From Krischvirus LF73P4, in sequence record OZ035795.1: a stretch of 64,000 nt of DNA. One strand, written 5' to 3'. Position 1 is the first letter of the stretch; each line of letters begins with the position of its first letter. Shown here piece by piece: positions 32,133 through 43,785 of the stretch. The notes below the pieces were generated by a model. The model was not told where the DNA came from. It saw only the letters and a list, made by a program, of their open reading frames with translations, and did no database searches. A program made the position numbers and the translations under genes.

Positions 32133-32495
32133 ATGCTAGGTCATTCTAAAATAGAAGATTGCTCATTCAGAGCAATGAAAGATGATTTTTCGGTCCTGTA
32201 CGCGTCTATCCGAGAGTTGTTTGTAGATTTTAAGCAATTCAGAGAATACAAAGGAGTTAAGATGCGGGAGTGGGTATTCTGGCCTTTCTATATCATTACT
32301 CTGTTTTCTATGGTATTTTGTTTTGTCGGGATCACTATCGCTAGTTTTGTCACTTGCGTTTTCCTGATTATCAGGTGTATCATGTTTGCTTTGATTGCTG
32401 CCCCGTTTATTGTGTCAATCCTTCCGTTAAAATGGCTATTGGATTGGGCTGATAAATCTGATAAAGTAAAGAATGTGATTTGTAAGCGTGTATGA
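32133..32495 (+). CDS. hypothetical integral membrane protein
   Basis: 120 aa; two long hydrophobic segments (FWPFYIITLFSMVFCFVGITIASFVTCVFLII and IMFALIAAPFIVSILPL). Confidence 0.45.
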   Translation: MLGHSKIEDCSFRAMKDDFSVLYASIRELFVDFKQFREYKGVKMREWVFWPFYIITLFSMVFCFVGITIASFVTCVFLIIRCIMFALIAAPFIVSILPLKWLLDWADKSDKVKNVICKRV

Positions 32496-32502
32496 GGTGA
32501 AG

Positions 32503-33849
32503 ATGAATAAATCAGTTACTTACCGCAGCCTTGAAAGCATTGTACATAATGAAGCTAAGGAATATGCGATCTATTCTGCCGAGGAACGCGGGATTCCTCA
32601 ATTAGTAGATGGGCTTAAACCAGTGCAACGCTTTGTTATGGAATGTGCTTTGCAAAAGAGTAAAGGCGACCGTAAGAAATTCCGTAAGATGGCAGATATT
32701 GGATCTGGTGTTGCTGAGTTGGGTTATCACCACGGGGAAACTAATGCCGTAGAAGCCGGATCACTCATGGCGAATACATGGAGCAATAATACTCCACTGC
32801 TTGACGGTCAAGGTAACTTCGGATCTCGTTTAGTCCAGAAAGCAGGTGCAGCACGTTATATCTTTGCTCGTGTGCATGAAAACTTCTTTAAAATCTATAA
32901 AGATATGAATTGCGCACCTAAGCACGAAGATCTGGAACACATCCCGCCAGCGTTCTACTTGCCAGTTGTGCCAATGGTATTGGCTAATGGTATTAGTGGT
33001 ATTGCTACAGGGTATAAAACTGACATTTTACCGCATTCACTGGAAAGCCTCATTGAATGCACAGAGCTAGCACTTGCCGGAAAACTGGATAAAGAACCTA
33101 GTGTTCAATTCCCGAAATTCACGGGTAAAGTTATCCCGCGAGATGATCGCGATGGTGTGATTCTTGAGGGTACATATGAACTAAACGGCAAGACTAAACT
33201 GACAATATCAGAAGTTCCTTATAAGTTCGACCGTGAAGAATATGTAGCGGTACTGGATGCACTGGAAGAAAAAGATCTGATTGTATCGTATAATGACCGT
33301 TGCTCTAAGGACGGATTCAGATTTGAAGTAACACTGAAACGCGATTATTTCAAAAGCGAAGATGAATCCGCTCGACATGAGCAAATCATGAAGGATTTTA
33401 AACTAACGCAGTTAGTAGCCCAGAATATCGTAGTGGTTAATGAACGTGGTTTAGTAGAAGTATTCGAGAAAGCGAGCGATCTGATCCGTCGATTCGTCGA
33501 AATCCGATTAGGGTATGTTGATAAACGCATTGAATTGATGCAAGCGGAAACGCTGGAAGCATACAATTATGCAATGGCTAAAGCCGAATTTATCGATCGC
33601 GTAATTAAGGGCGAAATCGAGCTACAGGGCAAGAAAAAGGCCGAGGTAATGCAATCCATCAATGGACATGAAAAACTGCGTCCATACGCCGATAAGCTAG
33701 TTTCTATGCCATTGTATAGCGTTACTCAAGAAGAGTATGATCGACTGGTCAAAGATGCCAATAAACATCATAGTGAATATGAGTATTGGACAAAGACGAC
33801 AGCAATGAAGGAATATAAGAAAGATCTTAAAGAACTTAAGAAGGGTTGA
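32503..33849 (+). CDS. 52: DNA topoisomerase II medium subunit gp52 (GyrA-like)
   Basis: ATG 32503 after GAGGTGA; DG.KPVQRFV, GDRKKF.K.A.I.G.VA.LGYHHGE, LLDGQGNFGSR.VQKA.A.RYIFARV match recalled T4 gp52. Confidence 0.9.
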   Translation: MNKSVTYRSLESIVHNEAKEYAIYSAEERGIPQLVDGLKPVQRFVMECALQKSKGDRKKFRKMADIGSGVAELGYHHGETNAVEAGSLMANTWSNNTPLLDGQGNFGSRLVQKAGAARYIFARVHENFFKIYKDMNCAPKHEDLEHIPPAFYLPVVPMVLANGISGIATGYKTDILPHSLESLIECTELALAGKLDKEPSVQFPKFTGKVIPRDDRDGVILEGTYELNGKTKLTISEVPYKFDREEYVAVLDALEEKDLIVSYNDRCSKDGFRFEVTLKRDYFKSEDESARHEQIMKDFKLTQLVAQNIVVVNERGLVEVFEKASDLIRRFVEIRLGYVDKRIELMQAETLEAYNYAMAKAEFIDRVIKGEIELQGKKKAEVMQSINGHEKLRPYADKLVSMPLYSVTQEEYDRLVKDANKHHSEYEYWTKTTAMKEYKKDLKELKKG

Positions 33850-34440: not shown

Positions 34441-34450
34441 CTGACTATTA

Positions 34451-34519
34451 AGCCGATCCTTGTGGTCGGCTTTTTTATTTGAAAAGTTGTTTGACTTCCA
34501 TAATCCAGCATTGCATAAT
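34451..34519 (+). promoter_or_regulatory. intrinsic terminator (AAGCCGATCC..GGTCGGCTTTTTT) followed by promoter TTGACT-N17-CATAAT
   Basis: GC stem plus U-tract after ORF 34048..34440; promoter 10 nt downstream. Confidence 0.5.
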
Positions 34520-34763: not shown

Positions 34764-34823
34764 TTGACACCAGAACAAGGGAGTAGTAACATACTCCCAT
34801 ACCAAACAAAAGGAGAATCAAAG
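34764..34823 (+). repeat. PeSL-like cassette B: TTGACA-N17-TAACAT, stem-loop GGGAGTA-gtaaca-TACTCCC, RBS AAAGGAGAATCA
   Basis: About 60-bp module, near-identical to cassette D. Confidence 0.6.
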
Positions 34824-35096
34824 ATGAACAACGAAAACAGCAAGGTGTTAGCAATTGCCGATAAAGTAGGTTACTGGAAATGCTGGGATGATATGGAGAA
34901 ATTAGGCGGTCGCTATCTCGATAACTTAGAGTTGCATTATTGCCAAGCGCGTAATGCAGAAGTTGCGGGAGTAGCAATCGAAGATATTCCGTCTAAAGTC
35001 TTCGGATTCTCTAAAGATGATACTCTAGAATATGTTTTCAAGGCTGTTATGGATCAAGCATGGGAAGACGCAGAGACACGCGCTCTTGATTGGTGA
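34824..35096 (+). CDS. hypothetical protein (downstream of repeat cassette B)
   Basis: Track ORF 34764..35096; ATG 34824 after AAAGGAGAATCA. Confidence 0.45.
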   Translation: MNNENSKVLAIADKVGYWKCWDDMEKLGGRYLDNLELHYCQARNAEVAGVAIEDIPSKVFGFSKDDTLEYVFKAVMDQAWEDAETRALDW

Positions 35097-35100
35097 TAAT

Positions 35101-35271
35101 ATGAACTGGTATAAAATTTGGAAAAATCAGGTGGAGGCTTATCTAGGGTATAAGCCCACCGACGAAGAATTACTTGAAGCAATGTACGAAGACGGAATAA
35201 ATCCGAAAGTAGCCGCGCAAGAATACGCGGAATGGATGAAGGTCGAAGATAACATAAAGGGGAAACTATGA
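35101..35271 (+). CDS. hypothetical 56-aa protein
   Basis: Track ORF 35032..35271; ATG 35101. Confidence 0.35.
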   Translation: MNWYKIWKNQVEAYLGYKPTDEELLEAMYEDGINPKVAAQEYAEWMKVEDNIKGKL

Positions 35272-35468
35272 AGAAAATGATTGCAATTGCTTTGCTGGCT
35301 AGTGCATGTACTGTAAATGCTAATACCGCAGCGATGGTCGCGGCTGTAACTGCCGCAAATGCTTCCGTTATGGCATCGCAAGAGGCAGCACGCCAGCAAG
35401 CACAACAAGAAGCCCAGCGAAAAGCGCATGAGGCGACGAAAAAATTTCACGAAAATAACAAAAATTAG
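35268..35468 (+). CDS. small secreted protein or lipoprotein
   Basis: 66 aa; MKKMIAIALLASAC|TVNA: signal peptide with lipobox-like LASAC (or AxA cleavage); Ala/Gln-rich mature part. Confidence 0.45.
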   Translation: MKKMIAIALLASACTVNANTAAMVAAVTAANASVMASQEAARQQAQQEAQRKAHEATKKFHENNKN

Positions 35469-35530
35469 TTGACTCCAAAGGTCATCGGTAGTATTATACT
35501 CCCATACCGAAACGAACTGGAGGAATTAAA
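35469..35530 (+). repeat. PeSL-like cassette C (diverged): TTGACT-N17-TATTAT, GGTAGTA..TACTCCC, RBS GGAGGAA
   Basis: Same architecture, one stem mismatch. Confidence 0.5.
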
Positions 35531-35773
35531 ATGGTTAAAGTTAATGTTATCGAAGTTGCACTGTATGACGCTGGTATCTTCCTGAATGAAAAAGAAGCTG
35601 CCGTTCTCGATGAACTGAAAACTGTTTTTGTTCCTGTAGTAGAAGACGTAGAAGCAATCAAAATCGCTTCTCGTAAACTGTCCCGCGAAGCATTCGATAT
35701 GATTGATCCGGTTTTCAAAGTTATGCACGAATGCGCGGTTATGATGACCGAAGAAGAAGCGAAAAATTTCTAA
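35531..35773 (+). CDS. hypothetical acidic protein (downstream of repeat cassette C)
   Basis: 80-aa ORF after GGAGGAA. Confidence 0.45.
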   Translation: MVKVNVIEVALYDAGIFLNEKEAAVLDELKTVFVPVVEDVEAIKIASRKLSREAFDMIDPVFKVMHECAVMMTEEEAKNF

Positions 35774-35780
35774 AAACTAG

Positions 35781-35838
35781 TTGACGTAAAGATAAGGGAG
35801 TAGTAACATACTCCCATACCAAACGAAAGGAGAATCAC
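35781..35838 (+). repeat. PeSL-like cassette D: TTGACG-N17-TAACAT, stem-loop GGGAGTAGTAACATACTCCC, RBS AAAGGAGAATCA
   Basis: Shares with B the run AAGGGAGTAGTAACATACTCCCATACCAAAC.AAAGGAGAATCA. Confidence 0.6.
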
Positions 35839-36124: not shown

Positions 36125-36883
36125 ATGAAAAACATTATCGCTGCTATCGTTCTTTCCGCTACTGCTTTCGGTGCTAATGCTGCGTCCTTTGATTGCGCTA
36201 AAGCTACTACCAAATCAGAGAAGTTTATTTGTGCTAATGAGTCTATCTCCGCACTGGACTCTAAACTTCATGAAGTGTATGTTAAGGCTGTTAAGATTGA
36301 TCCGTCTCTGAAACAAGAGCAACGAAACTGGAATAAAACTGTTCGTGATACAATGATCAATATCGGGCAGATTCAGCCACTGGAGGCTGTATACAACGCT
36401 CAAATCCAAAACTTGATGAATGTATTACCTAAAGAAGAAACCGCGTCAGAAAGCGATTCAGAGACTTCTGCGAAGGTTGAAGAAGAACAACCGAAACAGG
36501 AAGCAAAAGTGGTAGAAGAACCGAAGGTCGAAACTTTTACCTATCAATGCACCGTTCGTTATGAGTGGAGTATGAAAGATGGAATTTCCACAAAAATTAA
36601 AGAAGCGCCACTGTATGCCAAATATGGAAATCAACCAGGAGATCTTAAAGTAACCATTAAAAATGGGAAGATGGTTGATTTTGTATACATTGATGAATAC
36701 AACGTACACAAAGCAAACGTACAAGAAACCGTTATGACTAAAGGCGGGTTTTATAAGAATGTTGGCAAGAAAGATCTATATGAATACTCCGTTTTCGAAC
36801 CAAACGACGGAACTATTCGATTCGAAAAACGTCATCCTACATTCGGTGGCGCAATTGATGTAGATCAATACGTTTGCAAGTAA
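36125..36883 (+). CDS. secreted DUF1311/LprI-like protein (putative periplasmic lysozyme-inhibitor fold)
   Basis: 252 aa; signal peptide MKNIIAAIVLSATAFGANA; then SFDCAKATTKSEKFICANESISALDSKLHEVY.......Q.W pattern typical of the DUF1311 N-terminal domain; downstream of repeat cassette E. Confidence 0.5.
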   Translation: MKNIIAAIVLSATAFGANAASFDCAKATTKSEKFICANESISALDSKLHEVYVKAVKIDPSLKQEQRNWNKTVRDTMINIGQIQPLEAVYNAQIQNLMNVLPKEETASESDSETSAKVEEEQPKQEAKVVEEPKVETFTYQCTVRYEWSMKDGISTKIKEAPLYAKYGNQPGDLKVTIKNGKMVDFVYIDEYNVHKANVQETVMTKGGFYKNVGKKDLYEYSVFEPNDGTIRFEKRHPTFGGAIDVDQYVCK

Positions 36884-39192: not shown

Positions 39193-39849
39193 TTATCTAA
39201 TCCTTCCGAGGATTCTGGCAGATTGATTGCAAAGAGTATCTAAATTCTCAATGTCAATATCCGGTTTATTCTTCCATGCAATGGAGATACTACCAGAATA
39301 GACATTATCGAGATTGAATATAGGGCAAGAATACATAAACCCTATATCGATACTCTCTAATTTCTTTTCTCTTGATGGAATATACTGGAAATCTTTATCG
39401 GTAAAATATGATTTACCTAAAAGATGCCTACGATATTCTTCACTCGTTTTATTGATAGGGAATCCGCCTAAATTTTTTTCATCGATTGTATGCGGTAACT
39501 TTCCTTCATATGCCACCAAATCAACAAAATAGTTTAGGTTTTTCGGACGAAAACTAAAAACAGCAGAAAAATCGGCATCAGCCGACACATGAACTATCTG
39601 TAACTGCTCCTGTGCTGCATTATCAAAATTGCGGTCTTTCTCTACCTGGAGAACGTGAGCATAAGTCTCATAACGAGTCTCTTTATAAAGCGCAAATAAC
39701 TCGTTTTTACTATAAACGACAAATGCTAATATAGACAACACGACGGCAGCAAAAACACGAAGTACGAGCAACTCCGTGCTTTTAGTTGTGAAAATAGCGC
39801 GCAGGACATTTGAGATAGCAAAGTCTTTCCCTTTTTCAGAAACTTGCAT
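39193..39849 (-). CDS. t: holin T
   Basis: 218 aa; N-terminal TM segment; YETY; EQLQIVHVSADADFSAVFSFRPKNLNYFVDLVAYEGKLP; MYSCP.FNLDN.Y.G.I; ARILGR match recalled T4 holin. Confidence 0.85.
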   Translation of the reverse strand: MQVSEKGKDFAISNVLRAIFTTKSTELLVLRVFAAVVLSILAFVVYSKNELFALYKETRYETYAHVLQVEKDRNFDNAAQEQLQIVHVSADADFSAVFSFRPKNLNYFVDLVAYEGKLPHTIDEKNLGGFPINKTSEEYRRHLLGKSYFTDKDFQYIPSREKKLESIDIGFMYSCPIFNLDNVYSGSISIAWKNKPDIDIENLDTLCNQSARILGRIR

Positions 39850-39882
39850 ATAATGCCCTAAGATAACTATGACAGTGTACTC

Positions 39883-40122
39883 TTATTTAGGTAGTTGACT
39901 ATCACTATTTTTATTTTGCTCGTTGCTATCTTCTGACTGATCTTTATTAAACTCCTTATAAAGTTCTTCCACAAAACGATCATCAATTGGCGTATTGGTA
40001 TAAGCCGCAAGACGACGAGCGCAATAGAAGAAAATTTTAGTGAGCATCTTTTCACTAATTAACTTTGACAATAGTTTCATTCCGAAATTAGACAAAGCAC
40101 CAATGACGATATTATAGACCAT
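39883..40122 (-). CDS. hypothetical protein between gene 38 and t
   Basis: 79-aa ORF with AAGGAG RBS on minus strand; hydrophobic/amphipathic N-terminus, acidic tail. Confidence 0.4.
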   Translation of the reverse strand: MVYNIVIGALSNFGMKLLSKLISEKMLTKIFFYCARRLAAYTNTPIDDRFVEELYKEFNKDQSEDSNEQNKNSDSQLPK

Positions 40123-40185
40123 AGCCGTTTCTCCTTAGTAGTTCCCTTCCGTGGGAGTTTTCCTTAATTCTTTTTATAATTGCGT

Positions 40186-40968
40186 CTAAACAGCCGGTCC
40201 GTAAATAGCTCCGCGATTTTGCCACGTTGGAGAAGACCCTATAACAGCATATCCAGAATCGCCGCCATTATATTCAGATCCTTGACCACGAATATTACAT
40301 CTACCTCCTGCGGCGCCTACCTCACCACCGCTTCCACCATTATAGATACCGTTCACGGACCCCGAACCGGGCGCATAAAGAGTACCAGCAGTTGCGCCTG
40401 ATTGCATATCAATAGATCCGCCCGGCGCACCAAACGGACGCCCACCGCCACCGCCAAAGGTTAATCTCATTTGTGAAAAAGGAGAATAATACCCGCCACC
40501 GCCACCGCCACCGCCACCTGCAATAGCTCCACCATTATTAATTCTTAGTCTCCCACCAATATCATTTTGAATACAATGCCCCCCGGCTGATCCAGGACCA
40601 TTGCTACCGCCATTCCCGCCACGACCATACATCGTTACGCCATGTATATTCAACTGAACATATTCATTCGGTGTATCTCCGTACATAAAGAATAAAGGAA
40701 CATCTTTAGAATATGATACTAAATCTCCAGTGATATTAAACACTATAGGTGTACTACCTGCTTCAAAGCATCTATCACGGAACCACTGACCGTTGAAGTT
40801 ATGGTCTGCACCAAGTGTATGAATAATTTCTCGCGAGCGACCTGCAAATTGACTCATCCAGCAAGGAACACCCAATCTTAATTGACCAGCCGCTTGACTC
40901 ATCCATCGTTGTCCTGTTTCATTTGCGGCTGAACTTCCAATCCAACCAGGAACACCAACTACTGCCAT
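40186..40968 (-). CDS. 38: tail-fibre adhesin gp38 (T2-type, glycine-rich motifs)
   Basis: 260 aa directly downstream of gene 37; conserved N-terminal part then poly-Gly blocks ([30 protein letters not shown]) separating short variable segments. Confidence 0.75.
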
Positions 40969-40976
40969 AATTTATA

Positions 40977-41002
40977 CTCCAAAGGGGGCAACGCCCCCTT
41001 GT
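40977..41002 (-). terminator. hairpin between gene 37 and gene 38
   Basis: AAGGGGGCAACGCCCCCTT palindrome in 36-nt intergenic spacer. Confidence 0.35.
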
Positions 41003-41004
41003 TG

Positions 41005-43785
41005 TTAGAATTTAAAATATTTACTAATTTTGCGAGCAATTTTAGTAAAGAAAGGAGTTTTCAATTCTTTAATTTCTTCACTCATTTCCTGAATAGCCTT
41101 AATTAAAAGAGCATTCACTGCCGAGTTAGAAATTGTCAGAACATCAGATCCATCAACTTCAACTTTAGATACAGCTTCCGGCAATTCTTTTTCAAGATCC
41201 TGAGCAATAATACCAGCTTCACGTTTAATCACACTACGATCTTTAATAGACTTAACTTTATCGTAAGTATAAACTTTCAGACGGCATACTTTTTCAAGTG
41301 CTCCGTTTTCTAACTCTTCTTTATTAATCTTAAGACGGGAGTCAGAACGAATATACACATCGCTAAAGCTACCATTTCCTGGTGTATAAAAGAACCCATC
41401 ATGATGGAATTCAAACACAGCTTGTGGGTGTCCAGCATCAGGAGAAGCCTCCGTGGATCCGACACGAATGATTGCTTGCCCCCACTGTGATGGAATACGA
41501 CGCATACCAAAGTCAACAGCGGTGCTATATCCTTGATTGGTTATAACGCTTCTTGCTTTAAGAATAGGATAATAACTATCTTGACCAACATAACCATGAT
41601 CAACGAATAATGGAGCTTCTACTCGCCATTGGTTGCCCCAATCACCTGGTTGTCTGGCAACCCAACTTGCACCATTGATATACATACGATCGCGGTTAAC
41701 GTTAACCATTAAGGTATTTTGCGGGTTTAAAGATATCTCGCCAGAATTTGTAATATAAATTGCAGAATTACTAGCATAACTAAAAAACCCTAATCCGTTA
41801 TCAGCGCCTCCTTTCCCTATATACCAATTATTATTACCATCACAACTACCCAACAAATAAACCGAATCTCCAGATGACGGAGCATTCAAAACTATTGCGT
41901 CCGAACCACGATTAACAGTTATTTTATCGGAAGATTCTATTTGACCAAAGAATTTAGTTTTAATTGCACCAGTCGCTAAAGTACGTTCAGTGGAAAAATG
42001 AGCGCCTTTGCTATCTTCTAACTGAATAATGTTATCACGAGCGTTATTGCTATCACCCCAATGGTTAAATTTAAAATAATCTCGTGATCCTAAACGTCCG
42101 GCGTCAAAAGTCATCAAGCCTTTCATGTTAATATCACCACCAAAAAATGCGGTGAGAGAATCACGTTTTAATTTTAAAACGTTAGCACCACTAGTACCAC
42201 CCAAAGTAACATCACCAGTTCTTAATTCATAACGGAAAGGTCTATTTGTATTAAAGTTTCCATCTTGATCATTTTCGTCGGTGGAAAGAATATAAAGACT
42301 CTCTCCATCATTACGTAAAAATGCACCAAATTTTCCGCCATACATACGGAATGCATTCAACGAGCGGAATTTAACTTCTGTTTTAAATGTGGTAGTGTTA
42401 TTAAGGTTAACAGTAGAGTTAAAGTTAACTGCGCCATTAAAATCTTGTTTAGCAGTCCAAGTATGTGATCCGTCTTCAAGAACAACACGGCGAACTGTAC
42501 AAGTTCTATTTCCCGGATTACCAGCAACACGAACGACAAAATAACGGTAGTTTGTCTGGGATACAGTACCACGCCAAACCTGAACAGTACGCCCTGTGCC
42601 AGTGTGTTCGCTAGGACCGACAGAAAACATAACCAAGTTTCCGTCAATCGCACCCCAATCCATATTTGCTGGCATGTTCTTTATTTTGTTCAAAGGAACA
42701 CTAAACATACTACCAGGGACAAAATCAAAGGTTTGCCAGTCTAGCTCCGCTAATTGAGATTTAACACCACCCATACCCAGAGTGATCGGCATAGAATAGG
42801 ACGTATATACTTCGTACCAATTTCCCCAGATGTTATTTGTCATCGCACGTTCAAACACGCGAGATCGCGTAGTTGCACCCGTTCCTGCGGTAGTGAAACG
42901 TTGGAAAATAGCGGCACCGGAAGCACGCTGTTTAACCTCAAGCAATCCGGTCATCTCAACCGGAACACCTTCTGCAACTGGACGGTTAATAACGGCATCA
43001 GTCCCTAAAATGTTATACAAGCCAGGAGAACGAAAATTATTAAGATCCCCGTCATAGAATGTGTTTGGAGTAACCATACCTACTTGTTGCCACGGTCCCC
43101 AATTCGGAGCTTCTGGATCCCATGCACCAGCAAGACAACGAACATATACAACACCCATTCGGGTAGTATAACGTTGCGTGCGAGAATAGTTACCACCTTC
43201 ATAAATTTCTAAAAGACCTTGCGCGAGACCACCTTCTTCTGGGTAATTTCGAGAAAATGATGCAATGGAACTTAAACTATTTCGCCATAACCCAAAATGA
43301 GAAGCATCACCTAAAGTATTCAAGTCTAGTGTAGTTGATAGTGGACGTGTGCCAGTTTGAATATTGCGCCACGGACCCCATGGACCATCTACGCCATTCC
43401 ATTTAGCAGACAAAGAACGGATATAAACGTTACCAGACCGAACAGTATAACGCTGAGTGCCAGCAAATTGACCAGCCACAAATACTTCTAATACACCTAC
43501 AGCATTCTCTTCTGGGAATTTATTTGCTGGCTGCGCATTTGTTGAAGTTGATTTAGACCAAACGCCAGTAAATTTACCAGTAGGTCCATAATTATCTAAA
43601 TTTGCATCAGATGGCAACTCACCGCGAAAGTGTCCCAAAGTAATTACATTATTGCTGTCATCTTTTGTATATAGTTCTCGATCCGCTAGGTTAATAGCAA
43701 GTTCACCCGGAGTTAGAATATTCGCATCCGGCTTGCGACCTGCCGTACTTGTTCTTTTAAATTGGATTCTCTGTAAATCTGCCAT
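41005..43785 (-). CDS. 37: long tail fibre distal subunit gp37 with C-terminal intramolecular chaperone domain
   Basis: 926 aa; N-terminus MADLQRIQFKRTSTAGRKPDANILTPGELAINLADRELYTKDDSNNVI matches recalled gp37 N-terminus; C-terminal ...RSDSRLKINKEEL... carries the SD.R.K motif of S74-type auto-cleaving chaperone domains. Confidence 0.8.
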   Translation of the reverse strand: MADLQRIQFKRTSTAGRKPDANILTPGELAINLADRELYTKDDSNNVITLGHFRGELPSDANLDNYGPTGKFTGVWSKSTSTNAQPANKFPEENAVGVLEVFVAGQFAGTQRYTVRSGNVYIRSLSAKWNGVDGPWGPWRNIQTGTRPLSTTLDLNTLGDASHFGLWRNSLSSIASFSRNYPEEGGLAQGLLEIYEGGNYSRTQRYTTRMGVVYVRCLAGAWDPEAPNWGPWQQVGMVTPNTFYDGDLNNFRSPGLYNILGTDAVINRPVAEGVPVEMTGLLEVKQRASGAAIFQRFTTAGTGATTRSRVFERAMTNNIWGNWYEVYTSYSMPITLGMGGVKSQLAELDWQTFDFVPGSMFSVPLNKIKNMPANMDWGAIDGNLVMFSVGPSEHTGTGRTVQVWRGTVSQTNYRYFVVRVAGNPGNRTCTVRRVVLEDGSHTWTAKQDFNGAVNFNSTVNLNNTTTFKTEVKFRSLNAFRMYGGKFGAFLRNDGESLYILSTDENDQDGNFNTNRPFRYELRTGDVTLGGTSGANVLKLKRDSLTAFFGGDINMKGLMTFDAGRLGSRDYFKFNHWGDSNNARDNIIQLEDSKGAHFSTERTLATGAIKTKFFGQIESSDKITVNRGSDAIVLNAPSSGDSVYLLGSCDGNNNWYIGKGGADNGLGFFSYASNSAIYITNSGEISLNPQNTLMVNVNRDRMYINGASWVARQPGDWGNQWRVEAPLFVDHGYVGQDSYYPILKARSVITNQGYSTAVDFGMRRIPSQWGQAIIRVGSTEASPDAGHPQAVFEFHHDGFFYTPGNGSFSDVYIRSDSRLKINKEELENGALEKVCRLKVYTYDKVKSIKDRSVIKREAGIIAQDLEKELPEAVSKVEVDGSDVLTISNSAVNALLIKAIQEMSEEIKELKTPFFTKIARKISKYFKF

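Follow-up and report, generated by a model that had tools for sequence, protein, structure and literature searches.

A genus-restricted accessory gene in the hyperplastic region of Krischvirus LF73P4 and its small, predicted exported early product

Does a lipobox-like string near the start of a short open reading frame (ORF) announce a lipoprotein that masks a phage receptor, or is it part of an ordinary export signal? This question is raised by a 66-codon ORF of Krischvirus LF73P4 (record OZ035795.1), contained in a stretch of 64,000 nucleotides to which we refer as the window. The original prediction saw in its product a small lipoprotein of the hyperplastic region, with a signal peptide that has a lipobox-like LASAC and with an Ala/Gln-rich continuation, and compared it with T5 Llp and the lambdoid Cor proteins, superinfection-exclusion factors acting in the envelope. 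The ORF exists as described and its translation is exactly the one that had been quoted (Table 1): MKK is followed by 11 uncharged apolar residues that include LASAC, then by an Ala-rich stretch, and finally by a segment rich in Gln, Glu and Lys.

Table 1. Features of the ORF, its product and its surroundings, in window coordinates.
Feature	Position	Strand	Remarks
Strong terminator	34450-34472		upstream of the early promoter at 34764
Early promoter	34764-34792	+	TTGACA, 17 nt, TAACAT; consensus match; probably drives a three-gene operon
90-aa gene	34824-35096	+	first gene of the proposed operon
56-aa gene	35101-35271	+	second gene of the proposed operon, directly upstream of the ORF
Shine-Dalgarno-like AAGGGG	35257-35262	+	5 nt before the ATG of the ORF; read from the sequence
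ATGA overlap	35268-35271	+	start of the ORF and stop (TGA) of the 56-aa gene
ORF	35268-35468	+	66 codons, then a TAG stop; product MKKMIAIALLASACTVNANTAAMVAAVTAANASVMASQEAARQQAQQEAQRKAHEATKKFHENNKN
Predicted Sec signal peptide, residues 1-18	35268-35321	+	n-region MKK, h-region MIAIALLASAC, c-region TVNA
Cys14 codon TGT	35307-35309	+	proposed lipidation site; not conserved
Val16-Asn17-Ala18	35313-35321	+	signal-peptidase I (-3,-1) motif; predicted cut Ala18/Asn19
Predicted Ala-rich helix, residues 19-36	35322-35375	+	NTAAMVAAVTAANASVMA; uniformly mildly apolar; most conserved part of the protein
Predicted polar, charged helical segment, residues 37-66	35376-35465	+	rich in Gln, Glu, Lys and Ala
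A-run	35460-35464	+	A5 or A6; in the DNA alignment its length decides whether the product has 66 or 74 aa
T4-type early promoter	35469-35497	+	TTGACT, 17 nt, TATTAT; begins at the base after the ORF stop
gp38 adhesin gene	40186-40968	-	about 4.7 kb and a dozen genes from the ORF

The region is 94-98% identical to genomes of Krischvirus, a genus of RB49-like T-even phages that infect E. coli and Shigella. The ORF has topoisomerase gene 52 (32488-33849) on one side and the holin t and adhesin genes (39193-43785) on the other, and is situated among many small orphan ORFs that each have their own early promoter. Its description as hyperplastic holds well, for repeated T4-type early promoters flank the locus and gene content differs among close relatives. 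Two other products of this region are an early, exported protein whose domain is LprI/DUF1311 ("lysozyme inhibitor") and a Tad2-like anti-Thoeris domain protein.

Because a strong terminator and an early promoter precede the 90-aa gene, the ORF would most simply be the third and last cistron of an early operon composed of the 90-aa gene, the 56-aa gene and the ORF itself, and translational coupling with the 56-aa gene, through the ATGA in which the two overlap, is likely. Downstream, the promoter that adjoins the stop codon, annotated as a promoter at this position also in phage GEC-3S, drives an 80-aa gene (35531-35773) and is a repeated, recombination-prone cassette. Indeed, when 35230-35530 was used as a query, its positions 222-301 (35451-35530 of the window, including this promoter) also matched many Krischvirus genomes at another site far away. 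Stems of the form GGGAGTA...TACTCCC are clear at the neighbouring promoters (34779-34798 and 35796-35815); at the downstream promoter the fold of 35440-35535 gives z = -0.95 against shuffled sequences, i.e., no significant stem-loop.

In the hyperplastic regions of RB49 and phi1, promoter-early stem-loop (PeSL) cassettes have been described to mediate modular shuffling (Arbiol et al. 2010, PMC2839356). The ORF shares with the ORFans associated with these cassettes the genus, the type of region, the status of database orphan, the adjoining repeated early promoter and an insertion/deletion polymorphism by which it is present or absent among near-identical genomes. That paper covers the shuffling mechanism and not the 66-aa ORF; its searched text mentions no signal peptide or lipoprotein, and "membrane" stands there mainly for filtration membranes.

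A low-complexity orphan that about half of the genus lacks or has deleted, and whose 3' end is unstable, might be suspected to be a spurious or non-functional product of cassette shuffling. Nevertheless, several layers of evidence speak against such a view. The most divergent copy, carried by a metagenomic Krischvirus-like contig (L007), was compared with the window over 195 bases of the ORF: 26 of them differ, 18 at third codon positions, and the Nei-Gojobori pN/pS ratio is 0.15 in the frame of the ORF, against 1.14 and 2.21 in the other frames. Furthermore, residues 16-34 are identical in the two copies despite six synonymous changes. This is strong, frame-specific purifying selection. Likewise, the start context GGGGAAACTATG, with its ribosome-binding site, is kept in all copies, including L007; as this contig keeps both the ORF and its start context without the upstream 56-aa gene, the ORF is retained independently of its neighbour. 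Moreover, it occurs on over 100 contigs. The gene is real, and we regard a spurious origin as very improbable. An overlapping antisense ORF of 103 aa was also considered and discarded, its frame being interrupted by stop codons in W115 and L010.

Relatives annotate the product as a hypothetical protein or, in W115, as a "putative membrane protein". According to a simple heuristic, a signal-peptide-like N-terminus is found in eight of the 231 ORFs of the window that begin with ATG and reach 40 aa; only two of the eight lie in plausible genes, namely the 66-aa ORF and its LprI/DUF1311 neighbour. At the other end of the protein, the 74-aa form carries eight extra residues, (A/L/E/V)VDAKGHR, which result from reading on into the -35 region of the following promoter (TTGACG giving Val-Asp). 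In the allele comparison no other part of the protein varies as much as this read-through tail, which probably has no function.

Since tblastn misses the low-complexity product, even against phages with identical DNA, the distribution of the ORF was established by DNA searches. Among the 58 Krischvirus GenBank records surveyed in this way, 27 carry the full ORF. In four others (E26, 011D4, phiS and PHB13) an internal deletion of about 173 nt covers the start and body of the ORF, and the 56-aa gene runs in frame into its tail, a fusion form that we read as a deletion derivative. Another 24 records, including the RB49 reference, JSE and Phi1, have neither the ORF nor the 80-aa gene, and there the 56-aa gene abuts a promoter cassette; three records scarcely match the region. 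The metagenomic arrangement without the 56-aa gene constitutes a fourth form, beside the ORF-bearing, deleted and ORF-less ones, and these four arrangements match PeSL-mediated shuffling of orphan ORFs. As the records with and without the ORF all correspond to viable isolates, the gene is accessory and dispensable.

The ORF is, in addition, an orphan confined to the genus Krischvirus. No relative was found in Pfam, PHROG, NCBIfam or PDB, and only four close clusters exist among the 5.8 billion proteins searched. An exhaustive HMMER scan of 1.84 billion representatives yielded nothing beyond two hits (P0005 and P0006), rejected as compositional false positives: they are long and repetitive, match a wide variety of unrelated Pfam families and do not align in BLASTP. 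The NCBIfam matches to FkpA, to the SCO0930 lipoprotein and to the TrbK entry-exclusion protein were set aside as chance, all being far under their cutoffs (TrbK, TIGR04361, reaches 12 bits with E = 0.2 against a curated cutoff of 50). No host counterpart was detected by blastn in 5,426 complete E. coli genomes, nor any copy by a DNA pattern scan of IMG/VR, and a metagenome scan gave only two further copies of the 66-aa form.

What, then, does the N-terminus encode? Its sequence reads as a signal peptide and not as a membrane anchor, because no segment of 19 residues is nearly hydrophobic enough to span a membrane (Hessa sums of +3.9 kcal/mol or more); in the hydrophobicity profile the apolar run measures 11 residues, i.e., the length usual in a signal peptide. 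The charged n-region and the hydrophobic h-region that precede the cysteine of a lipoprotein are both present (MKK and MIAIALLASA), and it is at the cysteine itself that the comparison of alleles becomes informative. This comparison included 24 distinct protein sequences from GenBank phages, metagenome contigs and protein clusters. At residues 11-14, ASAC occurs in 18 of the 24, VSTF in three, ASVC in two and VSSF in one, so that Phe replaces Cys14 in four sequences and Val occupies position -1 in two more; neither the cysteine at +1 nor a small residue at -1 is conserved among the homologs. The TGT codon has become TTC in L007-L009, Phe is likewise found in P0003 and P0021-23, and residue 13 is Val in P0011, P0018 and P0004. 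The ASVC allele P0011 is carried by nine contigs of up to 170,569 bp, and the cysteine-less P0021 by one of 174,881 bp. Variable residues 4, 11, 13, 14 and 15 fall within the signal peptide, and residues 11-15 form the most variable stretch of the 66-aa form, exceeded only by the read-through tail of the longer one. Such variability would be expected where the h-region of an ordinary signal peptide passes into its c-region, whereas a lipobox would show the reverse.

By contrast with this variable stretch, the VNA/N motif that follows it is invariant in all 24 sequences. Its residues at -3 and -1 are small and uncharged and no Pro stands at +1, as in a substrate of signal peptidase I (SPase I) with an 18-aa signal, and the cleavage call at Ala18/Asn19 is based on this (-3,-1) rule together with conservation. 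The neighbouring exported protein has a similar motif, ANA/A. Since the alleles vary at Cys14 while VNA/N is invariant, we conclude that the conserved route would be export with cleavage by SPase I and not by SPase II.

The lipobox itself was examined against the consensus [LVI][ASTVI][GAS]C, which none of the 24 sequences matches, ASAC departing from it by the Ala at -3. This mismatch is a weak failure, since AWAC, which also has Ala at -3, has been experimentally shown to be functional; a looser, PROSITE-like pattern accepts ASAC. Given this pattern and the activity of AWAC, lipidation of the ASAC allele of the window is possible, with the greater weight against it. Val at -1 falls outside the consensus, and mutagenesis of the Lpp cleavage site has indicated that bulky residues at this position block modification. 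Lipidation is not conserved across the family, so that the protein is unlikely to need it for its function. Thus, of the lipoprotein that had been proposed, the N-terminal export signal stands and the lipobox is doubtful, Cys14 being lost in four of the 24 sequences and position -3 lying off the consensus. The idea of an envelope-acting factor survives in part, because the export signal makes an envelope or periplasmic site of action likely.

That the signal is cleaved at all is an assumption against which T4 RI offers a precedent, the signal-peptide-like N-terminus of this protein being able to remain uncleaved and to act as a releasable anchor. By extension, the product could be an uncleaved signal-anchor or SAR-type protein, as the antiholin RI, in which residues 1-36, where Ala, Ser, Thr and Asn abound, would tether it transiently to the inner membrane while its periplasmic helix regulates the T holin (lysis inhibition) or blocks DNA entry as T4 Imm does. 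The weak hydrophobicity of the N-terminal stretch (best Hessa sum +3.9) and the second, mildly apolar Ala-rich segment behind it are consistent with this reading, a weakly hydrophobic Ala-rich composition being typical of releasable anchors, as are the "putative membrane protein" annotation in W115 and the presence of a T-type holin about 4 kb away. However, the ORF has no genetic linkage to this holin other than a common 5-kb region, no similarity to the RI or Imm families was found in Pfam or PHROGs, the hydrophobic core has only the 11 residues of a signal peptide, and VNA/N is an ideal and invariant SPase I motif. We consider an uncleaved anchor quite improbable.

After SPase I cleavage, which is the reading that we prefer, the mature peptide is predicted to have 48 aa and a net charge of +2 in the window, and 56 aa in the long allele, and from Asn19 onwards it has no Cys. 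Its first part (residues 19-36) displays a small-residue face of the type AAxxAAxxAA, with muH ~0 and <H> ~0.45, and its Ala residues are clustered on one helical face to a degree reached by 35 of 5000 shuffles. Patterns of this kind allow tight helix-helix packing. Its second part (residues 37-66) tolerates an in-frame deletion of four residues, RQQA being missing in P0002. In turn, an AlphaFold2 model based on a shallow alignment of five near-identical sequences presents residues 3-65 as one continuous helix with no tertiary fold (mean pLDDT 72, with a low pTM of 0.30).

These properties invite a bolder reading, to which we give little credence, namely that the strictly conserved Ala-faced helix (residues 19-36) represents a novel type of small effector in the periplasm, which docks onto a helix of an envelope protein and is switched by allele. 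Candidate partners would be the T holin, through its periplasmic or transmembrane part, or a component of the host inner membrane used in DNA entry. The effector would then serve a Krischvirus-specific superinfection exclusion or lysis timing unrelated to Imm, Spackle, RI, Llp and Cor, and its alleles would switch between a lipid-anchored form (ASAC) and a soluble one (ASVC, S[ST]F).

The analogy with Llp and Cor deserves to be weighed in its own right. These are outer-membrane lipoproteins with a conserved intramolecular disulfide, whose genes adjoin that of the receptor-binding protein and whose products jam the receptor of their own phage from the periplasmic side (PMC9586334); Rtp and LptD have been cited beside them for receptor jamming. 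If the ORF product were of this kind, Lgt and LspA would process Cys14, Thr at +2 would permit Lol-dependent sorting to the outer membrane, and the anchored helix would bind the periplasmic face of the receptor, blocking adsorption or entry of further phage. The likeness lies in size and early production and in a Cys near the end of the signal in most alleles of the ORF. Indeed, in the majority allele Cys14 follows a short hydrophobic core and the small residues A-S-A, the Ala at -3 is tolerated in the validated AWAC lipobox, and Asp, whose absence at +2 is a sorting rule for lipoproteins, does not occur there. The gene is, besides, early and dispensable, like superinfection-exclusion genes.

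Yet the cysteine is missing or preceded by Val in the six sequences described above, while the remaining protein is under selection, and no similarity to Llp or Cor was detected in Pfam, PHROGs or PDB, the last of which holds the FhuA-Llp complex. The product cannot form the disulfide that Llp and Cor have in common, because it has one Cys or none in the 24 distinct sequences, and a single helix is predicted instead of a compact domain. Nor does the ORF lie beside adhesin genes, gp38 being distant and on the opposite strand, and its presence does not co-vary with adhesin type. Among the ORF carriers, the adhesin module of the window, of KMB43 and of FL04 is of the gp38 type and about 93% identical to that of Tequatrovirus phages, whereas GEC-3S, also ORF-positive, has an RB49-type gp37 and no gp38 adhesin; its gp37 is 61% identical to that of ORF-negative RB49 and only 36% to that of the window. 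The gp38-type and RB49-type adhesins target different outer-membrane proteins. For all these reasons (no similarity, at most one Cys, a single helix, a distant gp38 and unshared adhesins) a receptor-matched masking factor is unlikely, and the Llp/Cor-type lipoprotein of the original prediction finds no confirmation; as a whole, we judge an outer-membrane lipoprotein of this type to be improbable.

A second analogy is provided by T4 Spackle (gp61.3), an early periplasmic superinfection-exclusion protein of 75 aa that forms a compact helical bundle with a disulfide (PMC7677548). Both are small, non-essential and helical early products of T-even phages with a cleavable export signal, these last two traits being predicted for the ORF, and they would share periplasmic action, which is presumed for the ORF product. 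They differ in that the latter is predicted to be a single helix of 48 aa with no Cys in its mature part; no similarity to Spackle was found in Pfam, PHROGs or PDB.

Two further possibilities were considered and rejected. Braun's lipoprotein, Lpp, is all-helical with Ala-lined faces, as the ORF product appears to be from the AlphaFold2 model and the helical-face test, and its mature length of 58 aa is near the 53 aa that the product would have if processed at Cys14. Nevertheless, anatomy speaks against a mimic of Lpp: the C-terminal Lys by which Lpp attaches to peptidoglycan is not conserved in the ORF product, which ends in KN, KK or GHR, the Cys is not conserved either, and similarity to Lpp was not detectable in Pfam or PDB. 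Spanins, in turn, combine an outer-membrane lipoprotein signal with a linked i-spanin or a C-terminal transmembrane domain and belong to a lysis cassette. An o-spanin or u-spanin was discarded in view of the polar, charged C-terminal half with no transmembrane domain, the early operon and the non-conserved Cys.

Altogether, we lean, somewhat beyond even chances, to the product being a non-essential early protein that is exported and cleaved by SPase I to act in the periplasm. A sigma-70-type early promoter would drive its synthesis shortly after infection, the ORF being the last of three cistrons in a small operon, and the 18-residue signal peptide (MKK, an 11-residue hydrophobic core and TVNA) would direct the product to the Sec pathway. 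SPase I would most probably cut after Val-Asn-Ala, freeing into the periplasm a peptide of 48 aa (56 aa in the long allele). This peptide would form one long helix, apolar, rich in Ala and strictly conserved in its N-terminal half, polar and rich in Gln, Glu and Lys in its C-terminal half. The Ala-faced helix would be the likely working part, whether it associates with itself or packs onto a helix in some partner of the envelope, and with the ASAC majority allele a fraction of the molecules might enter the lipoprotein pathway instead. We infer export, cleavage site, helical structure and periplasmic action.

As regards the purpose of such a peptide, Imm and RI are T4 early envelope proteins with assigned roles, both of which concern the superinfecting phage. 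By analogy with these two and with T4 Spackle (PMC7677548), a role in conflicts related to the envelope or to superinfection is plausible, dealing with superinfecting phage or protecting the envelope being the likeliest class of function, and an early and accessory gene fits it; superinfection exclusion in particular is at best doubtful. Alternatively, the exported peptide could target a host envelope function unrelated to superinfection, for instance by neutralising a periplasmic or membrane anti-phage system or by adjusting envelope integrity during infection. The conflict-type genes nearby (the exported LprI/DUF1311 protein and the Tad2-like anti-Thoeris domain protein) are in keeping with such a target, and the presence/absence polymorphism fits a utility that depends on the host. 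On the other hand, the product has no homology to known anti-defence proteins, and this alternative differs from the account that we favour only in the target; it seems to us unlikely.

The ORF is thus an ordinary orphan accessory gene of a PeSL hyperplastic region, with a small, predicted exported early phage protein as its product. It carries a note of caution for annotation, as a lipobox-like string in one genome is insufficient to call a phage lipoprotein, and comparison of alleles can overturn such a call. To our knowledge, few of the proteins that T-even phages export early have been given a function, and Imm, Spackle and RI have each revealed how the infected cell handles a superinfecting phage. 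Because natural knock-outs (PHB13, 011D4, E26 and phiS) and alleles with and without the lipobox-like string already exist, this genus-restricted, putatively exported peptide would constitute a cheap candidate for a further function of the superinfection type.

The 66-aa ORF and the 80-aa gene next to it are absent together from the RB49-type arrangement; along with one promoter, they thus act as a single indel unit of ~520 nt, lying between repeated early promoters (Table). Two further variants touch the ORF itself. The A-run at its 3′ end occurs as A5 or A6, which makes the product either 66 or 74 aa long; the extra residues of the longer form are encoded by the -35 element of the next promoter. 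In four isolates (PHB13, 011D4, E26 and phiS), a deletion of ~173 nt, whose junction falls at a short AGG-type microhomology, lets the upstream 56-aa gene read in frame into the ORF's final ~20 codons, so that a chimera of 72 aa results.

Table. Features of the window discussed in the text
Feature	Position	Strand	Remarks
56-aa gene, fused to the tail of the ORF by the ~173-nt deletion (L005/L006)	35101-35271	+	
A5/A6 homopolymer polymorphism	35460-35464	+	ORF product length 66 vs 74 aa
80-aa gene, next after the ORF	35531-35773	+	no match in PHROG or Pfam searches
Early protein, 252 aa, LprI/DUF1311 domain	36125-36883	+	PF07007; clear signal peptide ...FGANA|A
Tad2-like (Thoeris anti-defence 2) domain ORF, 82 aa	38897-39145	+	PF11195; adjoins holin gene
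gp38 adhesin + gp37 tip	40186-43785	-	PF05268 and PF21721 in gp38

A second predicted exported protein, the LprI/DUF1311 protein, is encoded ~650 nt downstream of the ORF. Its domain match reaches 25.8 bits (cutoff 22), and relatives carry forms of 252 or 266 aa. Further on, the Tad2-like domain passes the Pfam threshold with 27.9 bits (cutoff 25, E = 3.4e-6); the homolog in L007, the metagenomic contig bearing the most divergent copy of the ORF, likewise receives a Tad2-like call.

The DNA of the gp38 adhesin and gp37 tip is ~93% identical to that of Tequatrovirus phages (RB14, T6-like, Yersinia PST). There were 548 matching records, and the best 60 of them include no Krischvirus entries other than KMB43, FL04, MIZ4/5 and FL15. 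A gp37-only architecture is present instead in GEC-3S and in the RB49 reference. The region looks like an adhesin module swapped between genera.

Finally, tblastn-based searches with the ORF protein returned zero matches, even against genomes carrying identical DNA, a blindness that is probably due to low-complexity masking. Small Ala/Gln-rich proteins of this kind may be systematically overlooked.
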